Assembly: GCA_963827275.1 (NCBI GenBank)
Contig: CAWHAA010000006.1
Span: 8,961 to 72,960 of the forward strand
Reading direction: 5' to 3'
Length of the DNA stretch: 64,000 nt
Source: an uncultured Spirochaetota bacterium
GTDB taxonomy: Bacteria; Spirochaetota; UBA4802; UBA5550
Of the stretch, positions 49,801 to 53,860 are shown in pieces; the stretch's first letter is position 1; each line of letters begins with the position of its first letter. The notes beneath the pieces are model-generated. The model was not told the origin of the DNA, searched no databases, and was given only the letters and a program-made list of their open reading frames with translations. The translations under genes were made by a program, and so were the position numbers.

Positions 49801-52800
49801 ACCGATTTGGTGAAAAAAGTTCTGAAACTGATTCAAACGGAAGTACAATTCGTTATGAATATGATGAATTCGGAAGGCTTGTAAAAACTGTCAACCCGGG
49901 TGACGAGTGGTCCAGTACAGTTATTTATAACATAACCGGTGATCCAAATACGCAATATATAGAGACACATGTTGCCGATGAATCAAGTTCTGGATTTCAT
50001 TATAAACGTCAATATATGGATGCACTTGGAAGGGTTTATAAAATTATCCAGAAGGCAGAAGAGACGGATGCCTTTACTCTTGAGCAGGAAGTGGATATTG
50101 AATTTAATGAGCATGGTCAAAAAAACAGAGAAACCATGCCGTATTTAATCGGTTCATATAACGAAAGCCCACTTTATATCAAATATAAATACGACTCGTT
50201 AAATAGATTGATCTTGATTGATTATCCTGATAATACTTCAAAAAAATTTATATTTGCAAATGAGGGTGATGGAGAATATTCTGAAACATTAATAGATCGT
50301 GATGGTACAATGCACAAGTTGGTTCGCAATGCAAGGAATAGGGTAATTAAAAAAATAGATTCTAATATTGTTAATACCTCATATTCATATAATAACGCTG
50401 GCTTGTTGTCATTGGTAACTTATACCGATGGTTTGAAAACAATGATAGAATATGATTCGCTTGGTAGAAAGGTGTCAATCTGTGATCCCAACACTGGTAT
50501 TTCATCATATTCTTATAACGATGCTGGTTATTTATTATCTTCACATGATGCAATGGGTAATACGGTATCATATGAATATGACGCGATTAATAGAATTAAA
50601 AAAATACATCATCCCGAGGGTACTGCCGATATTAACTACTACTATGATGATCCATCAATTAAAAACAGCCGGGGGAGAGTAACGAAAATAACAGACGGTG
50701 TGAGTGAATCGACTTTTGCATATGATGGCAAGGGACAAATAATAATAAAAACACAAAAGATTGATGGCATGAAATTTATATTCCAGATGGAATATGATAA
50801 AGTCGGGAGAGTTGCGCGTTTGACATATCCCGATGGGACAGCAATATCCCGTCAGTATGCTAATCTTGGGTATCTCAAAAATGTTGATTGGAATGGATAT
50901 TCTATCGTCCAGTATGGACGTTTCAAAGAAGATAAAAACAGCAGTATTCGGAATATTGAGAATCGGGTTTATCGAATCACTGGAGATGGTGTTGAGACCA
51001 ATATATTATATAATCCAGCTACTACCAAGCCTGAACGAATAGTGTCAAAAAAGAATTACGGTAGCGGTGACGTTATTGAAGATGTAACTTACGAATATAA
51101 TGTCTCTAATATAACATCTATAACCGACAACCTCGATAATTCAAAATCGCAAACCTTTGCTTATGATTCATTAAATCGCCTGATTTCCGCTGATGGCGTA
51201 TATGGTCATATCTCTTATAATTATGCAAACAATGGTAATTTAAGAAAGAAGGGCGATCTTGTACTTAATTATAATGATTCGTCTCATCCATATGCTGTGA
51301 CCAGTGATAGTGTGGGAAACAATTATTTGTATGATGATAATGGTAATATGATTTGCCGTAAGGGAAGTGAGCTTGTCTATGATAGTTTAAATCGTCTGAT
51401 GGCAATTAAAAATAATGGTAATAATATAGCAATCTATAATTATGATCATACTAATCATAGAATTAAGAAAACATTAGGAAATGGAACGGTCATTTACAAT
51501 ATCGAAAATTTATATGAAATTACGAGAATTCCTCAATATCCTGATCTTCATACAAAATATTTTTATGGTGTAAAAAATGAATTAGTCGCTCAAATGACTA
51601 TGGAAAATTCTCAACTTTTATCCTTTAACAATCCGTCTGTTATTAACAGCTATTATGCAAAGAATAATCTTAAGGGTCTTATATTATTCACATATGAGTA
51701 TTTGAATTATTTAAGCAATAACAAGAAAACATACCGTTATTTTATTTATGTAACTTTACTTCTTGGTTTTTTTGTATTGTTAACATTAACTTTTAAAAAC
51801 ATAATCATATATAAAAGTAGAATAAAAATTTTACCTGTTTGGGCAATAAAAACAGTGCCAGTACTTTGCTTTACTGTATTTGCATCATACGGTTTATTCG
51901 GCTGTAGTAATATGATCAGTGATTCTCATGACAATGGCGAATCTCCTTGGAATATTTTGATATATACGGATGTTAATCTACCATCCGGCACACCAGTTCC
52001 GGGAATGATGTTTTTTCATCCCGATTACAATAGAAATATAAGTTATGTTACCAATGCGCAGGGCGAAAAAATCTATCAGGCATATTATAAACCTTATGGT
52101 GAAATTTCTGAAATGTCAGGGAGAGATGTTGTTCGGTATAAATTTAATTCCCATGAGCATGACCAGGAATCTGGACTTATGTATTACAATGCCCGCTATT
52201 ATGATTCCAATATTGGAAGGTTTATTACCCCTGATACAATTGTCTTTGATCCGGGGCAGTCGCAAACATCCAATCGATATATGTATGTAGTTGGTAATCC
52301 TATCGCTCTCAATGATGCTACTGGCAATAGTCCTGAATCACAGCTTTATCTGTATGCTGAAACAATGATGGCCAATTGGTCTAAATGGTCTGAACAAGAA
52401 TCTCAAAAAAGTCTGGGCGTCCAGTTTTGTAAATCAATAATAAATTCATTTACAGGTATATTCTCATGGATAGAGGGAGGCTATAAAGGATTTCTATCCG
52501 GTTGGATTACAAATTTAATAAATTATCCTGGCTTTAGTTTGTCATATTCATACAATGCAGGCTGGGGAGTTACTGGAGGTTTATATGGCCGATATTATTG
52601 TATAAGCTGGGGTAATGGTTTCCACTGGCAGGAAAAAGGTCCCAACGGTGGCTGGAGCATCTATGGTACAGTTTCATTGAGTTATGAAAAACTTTCGGTT
52701 GGGCTGGCGACCTCATATAACTTTAATAAGCATTCAATAACAAATAATTTGCGCGTTAGTTTGAGTGATAGTGGTGGAGCCGTAGGTATTGGTTATACAT

Positions 52801-53278: not shown

Positions 53279-53860
53279 ATGAAAAATAAAAATTTTAATA
53301 ATTTATTAATTAGACATATATATATTTTACCAATATCTTGTATAATCATTATTTTTCAATCTTGCTGTAGTTATTCGACAGTACCAGAAATTAGGAATAA
53401 AATATTTGATAATTATTATTCTCATATAATTCTTAATTATTCAGTACATATTGGAGCATCAAAAAAGGAAAAAGAAGTTGTAAAGAAAAGTATTAATGAT
53501 ATGAGATTAAAAGATATTAAAGAAGTATCAATAATGCCAAAATATGGATTATTCTTGCAAATTAATATTACTCATGCTGAAGATAATCGGGTACGACCAG
53601 GCATTGCTTGGATAACATACTTAACCGCAGGTATTATACCAACATATACATTAAATGCTGATTATTATATTTTCAATTATTATCTTTATTATAATACAAA
53701 ATTAATTCTAAAAAAAGAATATAAAATTATAAGTAAATCTTTTAATTGGCTTTTTTCTGTTCCATTCAGATTTGGTCCGCGTGGTAATTATTATAGAATG
53801 GGTAAAATTATCGATTTTATTAATCATGATTTTTTTCAATTGTGCAAGGAGTGTTTGTAA
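53279..53860 (+). CDS. Candidate cognate immunity protein (lipoprotein-like signal, unknown family)
   Basis: 193 aa, starting 5 nt after the RHS stop, with the same low G+C. It has an N-terminal hydrophobic segment with Cys (ILPISCIIIIFQSCCS). The assignment rests on position only. Confidence 0.5.
   Translation: MKNKNFNNLLIRHIYILPISCIIIIFQSCCSYSTVPEIRNKIFDNYYSHIILNYSVHIGASKKEKEVVKKSINDMRLKDIKEVSIMPKYGLFLQINITHAEDNRVRPGIAWITYLTAGIIPTYTLNADYYIFNYYLYYNTKLILKKEYKIISKSFNWLFSVPFRFGPRGNYYRMGKIIDFINHDFFQLCKECL

Follow-up and report, generated by a model that had tools for sequence, protein, structure and literature searches.

The window analysed here, a stretch of 64,000 nucleotides from an uncultured Spirochaetota bacterium (assembly GCA_963827275.1, contig CAWHAA010000006.1), carries on its plus strand an intact Rhs polymorphic-toxin gene of the TcdB/TcaC type (46788..53273, 2161 aa), recognised from its open reading frame (ORF) and from Pfam and NCBIfam matches. 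Its last 314 residues (52329..53270) form a C-terminal cargo domain of a new family with eight known members, and the next gene on the same strand (53279..53860) encodes a 193-aa putative lipoprotein, a candidate immunity protein. The start of the Rhs gene was called mechanically at a TTG codon; an ATG at codon 6 (46803) agrees with the start of the ortholog P0003. A signal-peptide-like hydrophobic N-terminus (aa 4–36, 46797..46895, ...LFLFA/DINPDG; Kyte-Doolittle maximum 2.49), which is kept in the ortholog at locus L001, is followed by an SpvB domain whose best-matching stretch is aa 36–105 (46893..47102; Pfam PF03534, E 3.7e-17, and an NCBIfam SpvB N-terminal match). FG-GAP/integrin-like propeller repeats with DxNGDGxxD blades lie at 47946..48838 (PF13517, E 2.4e-20; PF01839, E 4.1e-11), a region that holds the five-copy DNA repeat family D3. 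The RHS/YD repeat shell comes next (PF05593, E 2.6e-38, 8 stretches; NF041261, aa 1132–1499; TIGR01643); its coordinates, 49821..51284, enclose the best-matching RHS stretches only, and the repeats reach further. The Rhs repeat-associated core, the aspartyl autoprotease plug, is found at 52086..52325 and ends in ..NDATG-N1847. Its TIGR03696 (Rhs_assc_core) match in NCBIfam covers aa 1767–1846 and profile positions 1–75 of 76 (E 3.2e-19). With a signal-like N-terminus, SpvB, FG-GAP, RHS/YD and a core before the tail all present, the protein is assigned on its domain content to the TcdB/TcaC (SpvB) class of polymorphic toxins, which was described by Zhang et al. (2012) with spirochaetes among the listed hosts (PMC3482391).

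With aa 1847 as the last residue of the core motif ..NRYMYVVGNPIALNDATGN, the tail comprises aa 1848–2161. A 314-aa domain at 52329–53270 behind the Rhs cleavage motif had been marked out in a sequence-only reading of this DNA, and the TIGR03696 match and the length of the ORF bear out these boundaries. The core aligns with solved structures (7Q97, 8H8A, TcdB2-TccC3 in 6H6E, Tse5 in 8CP6, and YenC2). RYYD and NDATG (xDxxG) match the RxYD and xDPxG positions of the solved Rhs and Tc proteins, and both catalytic Asp positions are kept. Because of this alignment, the tail after N1847 is placed where the released cargo begins in every characterised relative. Just before the core, the shell has an inserted hydrophobic hairpin (51732..51905, plus strand), in which two hydrophobic segments (aa 1649–1676 and 1679–1706) are separated by a Lys/Arg-rich loop and the second ends in a lipobox-like LFG-C (Cys1706). 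This Cys is conserved in four orthologs (the window protein, P0003, P0004 and P0005), three times as LFG-C and once as ITG-C, and the hairpin is absent from an unrelated RHS gene of locus L002. The insertion at aa 1649–1706 looks like an internal lipoprotein signal-anchor within the RHS shell, and it may serve for membrane anchoring or for internal cleavage by signal peptidase II.

The carrier is a typical representative of a known class, and by database comparison its cargo family is new to Pfam, NCBIfam and PDB. The tail matches no Pfam or NCBIfam family at E ≤ 1, all eight family members give only noise against Pfam at E ≤ 10, and no significant PDB match is obtained by phmmer, with the family profile, or with the beta core and the helical part searched separately. 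The claim that the tail is unrecognised, made earlier from the letters of the sequence, is upheld by these searches, which give no confident family match against its novelty. Streptodornase and acetyltransferase structures that appeared in the PDB searches have E > 0.1 and were taken as chance matches. An exhaustive phmmer search over 1.84 billion representatives found seven relatives of the tail (P0003 to P0009). P0003 (2134 aa) is 67% identical in the tail and has the same cargo sequence as the L001 ortholog, which comes from a Spirochaetota metagenome-assembled genome; tail identity is 47% for P0004 and 33% for P0005, and P0006 to P0009 are four shorter proteins or fragments. A word-indexed search of 5.8 billion clusters with the single tail sequence found no homolog, and such a search with the tail profile recovered only P0007. 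Scans of genome and metagenome collections located the tail at one genome locus and three metagenome loci and revealed no further member; a metagenome scan with a three-sequence alignment gave no new member, and a scan of viral contigs gave no locus with the tail. Every member having N-terminal context starts right behind the Rhs core motif NR[YF]xYxx[GN]NPxxxxDxxG[HNT].

Comparison of the window gene with its L001 ortholog gives dN/dS values of 0.12 in the tail, 0.077 in the beta core of the tail and 0.155 in the RHS body, and from these low values the tail is taken to be a functional domain that is not decaying. The family alignment, A1, displays the conserved blocks LSYSYxxGWG, FHWQE(K/R)GPNxGWS, SYNFN, GxGY, PTS, VTGxExG...E and LDxLxxHPxAV(L/F/V)HD; invariant across the family are G125, N131, G153, Y156, G236, E248 and L256, and H268-D269 is found in all seven sequences that extend that far. 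Glu248 and the LDxLxxHPxAV(L/F/V)HD motif, with its His268-Asp269, lie in the predicted helical C-terminal part (53070..53138, plus strand). The tail had been called rich in Gly, Ser, Tyr, Trp and Asn. Relative to the remainder of the protein, the tail is enriched in Gly (14.3% vs 8.5%) and Trp (3.8% vs 1.1%), but not in Tyr (7.6% vs 8.3%) or Asn (6.7% vs 8.9%), which are only slightly raised, at 9–10%, in the beta region. Charged residues account for 10.5% of the tail and 21.1% of the rest. No 19-residue window of the tail exceeds a Kyte-Doolittle value of 1.6, so that it has no hydrophobic helix, and only four loose [GAS]xxx[GAS]xxx[GAS] matches occur in it; the glycine-zipper-like segments once suspected in this domain find no support.

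AlphaFold2 given the tail as a single sequence returns a model with a pLDDT of 34. Given the eight sequences of A1, it places eight long antiparallel strands in about aa 65–185 (pLDDT 55–75, reached over aa 70–180), each 10–13 residues long and linked by turns of 2–6 residues, with low-confidence helices flanking them at aa 1–63 and 250–313. The predicted core, an uncharged amphipathic eight-strand beta-meander or barrel (cargo aa 65–185, 52521..52883, plus strand), includes the FHWQE(K/R)GPNxGWS turn. The alternating patterns that had been read as beta-hairpins reappear in this core, both in the model and in the statistics of the strand faces. Across the family, the hydrophobic face consists to 73% of LIVFWYMAC residues and to 33% of aromatic ones, the aromatics often standing at strand ends, and the opposite face, the more conserved of the two, consists to 70% of G/S/T/N. 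Less than 5% of the residues on either face are charged, the charges being located in the turns. Soluble barrels normally expose a charged face, whereas membrane barrels and the stems of beta-pore-forming toxins are aromatic or aliphatic outside, small and polar inside, and nearly uncharged. The pattern of the predicted core would thus fit a membrane barrel or a beta-pore-forming toxin stem. In Foldseek searches of PDB, the top matches to the core are the eight-strand barrels of avidin and streptavidin (TM-score 0.55–0.62, target-normalised; E 0.018–0.1; identity 8–12% over about 120 columns), followed by OmpW (E 0.045), PagL (0.065), NspA (0.065) and other outer-membrane barrels. In BFVD, phage proteins annotated as outer-membrane beta-barrels come first (E 3.8e-3 and 8.8e-3; probability 1.0 for the best). 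These fold matches tell only that the model is a closed eight-strand up-and-down barrel; in comparison, the residue pattern of the strand faces is more informative.

The lipoprotein ORF begins 5 nt past the stop codon of the cargo, and a GGAGGG sequence precedes its ATG by 11 nt. The encoded protein starts with a hydrophobic stretch that terminates in ...IIFQSC/CSYS, a predicted lipobox in which Ser-Cys is invariant in four homologs, in agreement with the distance and the Cys-containing hydrophobic N-terminus noted before. The dN/dS of the lipoprotein between the window and L001 is 0.38, so that this gene, too, is taken to be real and under constraint. The protein matches NF047816, the LIC12231 lipoprotein family of Leptospira, with 42.8 bits and E 5.6e-11, and together with three homologs, with which it has a lipoprotein N-terminus in common, it aligns to about 120 of the 164 profile positions (33–49 bits, E 5e-8 to 9e-13). 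Since the family cut-off is 180 bits, it is considered a distant relative of LIC12231 and not a member. A literature search for LIC12231 found no paper on the family at all, and hence no published function. LIC12231-like homologs stand behind the tail in all three close loci, namely the window, L001 and L004. In L001 the gene is present as two tandem paralogs, 77% and 35% identical to the window protein, and these copies (10941–12083 of that locus) have diverged to about 35% identity. Tandem diverged lipoprotein copies of this kind would be the pattern expected of immunity-gene arrays. The L004/L005 lipoprotein, 35% identical to that of the window, is encoded by a gene that overlaps the toxin gene by 19 nt.

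Behind the more distant tails a second lipoprotein family is found, next to P0005 (locus L003), P0006 (L009) and P0007 (L002); its L003 and L002 members are 33% identical. The two families have no kinship detectable by BLASTP or by hhalign (probability 0.1%), a third lipoprotein, in L005, has no relation to the second family, and neither family has a relative in PDB. Loci L003 and L009 have, between the cargo and the lipoprotein gene, a gene whose product carries a signal peptide and two transmembrane segments. Six loci have both an intact cargo and readable DNA behind it; in each of them a lipoprotein gene lies within two genes downstream, and the type of lipoprotein tracks the tail clade. 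P0007 is an orphan module of Rhs tip and cargo, situated downstream of a complete RHS gene that bears a different tail, P0009 is cut by the insertion of an IS200/605 transposase, and P0008 adjoins an IS3 insertion sequence (IS). In L004 the GC content at third codon positions (GC3) falls from 0.79 in the RHS body to 0.49 in the cargo and 0.30 in the lipoprotein gene, with the break about 90 nt past the core/cargo junction. Because GC3 drops so near to this junction, the L004 tail and lipoprotein appear to have come together from a low-GC donor. An orphan module, IS-linked fragments and the GC3 step in L004 are what would be regarded as classic features of rhs toxin/immunity cassettes. In the sequence-only reading, position was the only evidence for an envelope-located immunity protein downstream of the cargo; this proposal is strengthened by the homologs in the window, L001 and L004, and further by the second lipoprotein family in L002, L003 and L009 and by the low-GC cassette of L004.

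Collectively, the cargo and the lipoprotein very probably constitute a toxin/immunity cassette. An envelope or periplasmic site of action of the cargo is inferred from its lipoprotein and membrane-protein partners and seems fairly probable. That the cargo kills through membrane insertion or permeabilisation by its uncharged amphipathic beta core is a tentative proposal drawn from the predicted model, and falls somewhat short of an even chance. The reading as a whole, a Sec-exported Rhs toxin/immunity cassette with a cargo that acts on the envelope, most likely by membrane insertion, stands at about an even balance; in it the 193-aa lipoprotein is probably the antidote of the cargo. By analogy with the established biology of Rhs and TcC proteins, the aspartyl autoprotease of the core would cut the chain after N1847, and the freed cargo would be held inside the RHS cocoon and let out at a neighbouring cell. 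The beta core might then insert in the target membrane, either as a small beta-barrel or as oligomerising hairpins with a small-polar lining, and permeabilise the target envelope. The helical parts on either side of the core, which include the invariant E248 and H268-D269, might assist targeting or supply a catalytic step, and the co-translated lipoprotein would shield the producer at the periplasmic face of its membrane. In a narrower version, which is possible but doubtful, a cargo resembling an eight-stranded outer-membrane protein (OMP) would travel unfolded in the cocoon and insert as a pore lined by small residues that is neutralised by the lipoprotein, the carrier being perhaps lipid-anchored at Cys1706.

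Several observations weigh against this reading. The AlphaFold2 check proposed in the sequence-only reading did give an eight-strand core, but the model built from A1 is weak overall (mean pLDDT 49, pTM 0.52), and no fold match of the core reaches E ≤ 0.001 in PDB or BFVD. The tail family has no relationship by hhalign to an OmpX sequence entered by hand (probability 0.8%), and no tail member matches a Pfam outer-membrane barrel family at E ≤ 10. Since the best PDB matches are the soluble avidins, a soluble calycin-like barrel suits the model equally well as a membrane barrel. E248 and H268-D269 look catalytic, and a pure pore-former needs no such residues. In four full-length orthologs the identity of the cargo parallels that of the RHS body, and there is therefore little sign of cargo swapping in that lineage. 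The window holds no TcA or type VI secretion system (T6SS) delivery genes, and for the whole class we know of no route from a periplasm-exported cocoon to a neighbour cell.

The catalytic look of these residues is the starting point of the main alternative, in which the cassette stands but its cargo would attack the envelope as an enzyme, such as a lipase/phospholipase or a cell-wall hydrolase, with Glu248 and His268-Asp269 as catalytic residues and the barrel as a soluble calycin/avidin-like module that binds lipid or glycan. This alternative is unlikely without being negligible. E248, H268 and D269 are invariant wherever a sequence reaches them, and the top PDB fold matches are of the avidin type. 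Lipase or phospholipase A2 (PLA2)-like chemistry would also suit a lipoprotein as immunity protein; T6SS effectors that are phospholipases (Tle/Tli) or peptidoglycan hydrolases are as a rule countered by lipoprotein or periplasmic immunity proteins. Secreted PLA2 enzymes are marked by a catalytic His-Asp dyad, which provides a lead only. On the other hand, no lipase, PLA2, HD-domain or hydrolase is matched in Pfam, NCBIfam or PDB even at E ≤ 10, and the helical part that contains the dyad is predicted with a pLDDT below 55. Identification of the His-Asp motif as an HD domain or a PLA2 was accordingly rejected, as it lacks a profile match in Pfam and NCBIfam and has only the invariant HD dipeptide in common with them. 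The exposed face of a soluble barrel should moreover be charge-rich, as the surface of avidins is, and neither face of the cargo barrel is; resemblance to avidin and streptavidin, the best structural matches in PDB, is accompanied by E-values of 0.018 or worse and by low identity.

The inserted hairpin and the parallel divergence of cargo and shell would also suit a cargo that is no toxin at all but a structural or anchoring module, for instance an OMP-like barrel with which the producer fixes the RHS shell to its outer membrane, the lipoproteins being assembly or partner proteins instead of immunity proteins. The conserved internal hairpin with its lipobox-like Cys hints at membrane anchoring, OMP barrels are among the fold matches, and the last residue is aromatic in six of the seven sequences that extend to the C-terminus. 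This explanation is improbable. The domain follows the autoproteolysis motif, the place of the released cargo in every Rhs/TcC protein characterised; orphan modules of cargo and lipoprotein, IS-linked fragments and the GC-foreign cassette of L004 are hallmarks of toxin/immunity systems; and lipoprotein genes that are duplicated in L001 and swapped for an unrelated family in the distant clade are typical of immunity genes. Least probable is a Tc-like toxin (a TcB-TcC fusion) directed against a eukaryotic host or grazer, with a cargo acting on eukaryotic membranes or proteins and the lipoproteins as unrelated neighbours. In its favour, SpvB-propeller-RHS is the architecture of TcB-TcC insecticidal toxins, the core aligns to TcdB2-TccC3 and YenC2, and ankyrin-repeat proteins, which are often directed at eukaryotes, are present in the surrounding genomic island. 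On the other side, no TcA-like gene occurs in the window or the related loci, the linkage to the lipoprotein is tight, translationally coupled and clade-specific, and the ankyrin proteins, themselves predicted lipoproteins, would be retained by the producer.

The envelope-directed cassette can be compared with systems already described. It has the domain order of the TcdB/TcaC-type Rhs toxins, with a variable C-terminal domain right behind the core, a small gene following and orphan cassettes in related loci (PMC3482391). It differs from them in that its C-terminal domain fits none of the Pfam and NCBIfam models tried, toxin-domain models included, in the hydrophobic hairpin with a lipobox-like Cys that is inserted in the RHS shell, and in the candidate immunity protein, which is a lipoprotein. 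The sole lipoprotein immunity family named in the survey of Zhang et al. (2012) is Imm65 (PMC3482391). Tse5 (RhsP1) of Pseudomonas aeruginosa is referred to as an Rhs-encapsulated pore-forming toxin in a passage of PMC13018210, which cites PMC10684867. The Rhs cores of Tse5 and the window protein are homologous, as the 8CP6 match indicates, and the proposed cargo would likewise be a non-enzymatic, membrane-depolarising cargo that is freed from a cocoon by autoproteolysis. The C-terminal toxin (CT) of Tse5 consists of hydrophobic glycine-zipper helices, is delivered by T6SS and is neutralised by an integral-membrane immunity protein, whereas the cargo of the window has no hydrophobic helix, is predicted to be beta, rides on a carrier of the Sec/SpvB type and has a lipoprotein partner. 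Searches with the tail against PDB, which holds Tse5 as 8CP6, gave only non-significant, unrelated matches at E ≤ 10, although the deposited Tse5 chains may omit the CT. A Tse5-like helical glycine-zipper pore was considered for the cargo and rejected because of the missing hydrophobic helix, the few loose zipper matches and the strands predicted in the core. The likeness to OmpX, OmpW, NspA, PagL and the stems of beta-pore-forming toxins lies, in prediction, in eight amphipathic strands of 10–13 residues with an aromatic/aliphatic and a small-polar face, in few charges that are confined to turns, and in the weak fold matches. Small outer-membrane barrels differ in that they have no profile similarity to the cargo and no significant fold E-value; all loops of the cargo are short, and its barrel is internal to the domain, not C-terminal, and stands behind an Rhs core, not behind a signal peptide.

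Unannotated Rhs tails are common, and research on Rhs and Tc cocoons treats them as general capsules for protein delivery. To our knowledge, the characterised cargos of such cocoons are enzymes or helical pore-formers. If the proposed mode of action is true, this would be the first membrane-inserting beta-barrel cargo described for any Rhs/Tc-type cocoon; an uncharged amphipathic barrel paired with lipoprotein immunity would widen the known range of cocoon cargo, and one would have to ask how a beta-barrel can fold into a membrane unaided by the beta-barrel assembly machinery (BAM). Through the cassette, the uncharacterised LIC12231-like lipoproteins of spirochaetes would for the first time become accessible to functional study. 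Should the cargo be an ordinary enzyme, it would add one more toxin family to a well-known system and be mainly of concern to specialists.

The Rhs locus forms a low-GC island (about 33% GC, roughly 46000–58560) within DNA of about 60% GC. A strong terminator (45989–46016) marks its left edge and an IS element its right end, and no tRNA gene flanks it. The host is taken to be a diderm bacterium because of TolC-like OEP, HlyD and MacB genes at 39339–43664. Apart from the terminator at the left edge, a scan of the AT-rich DNA for promoters and terminators is uninformative, with 66 promoter-like sites against 51 expected. The L001 ortholog also lies in a low-GC island on a Spirochaetota contig of 55–60% GC, at a different site, beside rpsF-ssb-rpsR-rplI-dnaB. 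Downstream of the 193-aa ORF, the plus strand of the window carries two tandem ankyrin-repeat lipoprotein genes (54828–55577 and 55672–56421; Pfam Ank families, lipobox-like N-termini). A third (56634..58559, plus strand; third copy of repeat D1) is split by the IS element, its 5' part lying at 56634–57155 and its 3' part, 86% identical to the first copy, resuming after the IS at about 58320–58559. The IS (57151–58319) encodes an rve-family transposase on the minus strand (57203–58240) and is bounded by imperfect inverted repeats of 29 nt (I3). An ankyrin lipoprotein gene also follows the lipoprotein genes of L001 (12065–12502), and the ankyrin-repeat lipoprotein paralogs seem to belong to the module as a conserved component; the tandem copies may provide the island with additional genes for immunity or accessory proteins.

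Between the candidate immunity gene and the ankyrin genes, the stretch 53870–54730 has a GC content of 38–45%, higher than that of the island. Its two ORFs (54066–54356, 96 aa; 54422–54820, 132 aa) match no family, and a loop-less palindrome with arms of 27 nt is present at 54389–54442. The stretch may be a remnant of an earlier cassette or mobile element. Directly left of the island (43759–45890) lie two genes, one for a CPBP/Rce1-like intramembrane protease (258 aa), with a GC content below that of its flank, and one for a 412-aa membrane protein that has a double zinc ribbon at its C-terminus; CPBP proteins in some cases serve as self-immunity factors against bacteriocins. In L003, the locus of P0005, SpvB is encoded as a separate 393-aa ORF upstream of a 1597-aa FG-GAP-RHS gene (3483–9794), and the carrier there is either naturally split or frameshifted. 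In L002, the SpvB-RHS gene upstream of P0007 (795–5809) has a Gly/Ala/Ser-rich tail of its own with glycine-zipper-like hydrophobic stretches (..GVEIVAGLGIAIAGSG..), which is followed by a 77-aa Cys-rich protein (CPQCG...CQKCG). This Gly-rich tail and the 77-aa protein are a candidate for a second, distinct pair of membrane-active toxin and immunity protein.

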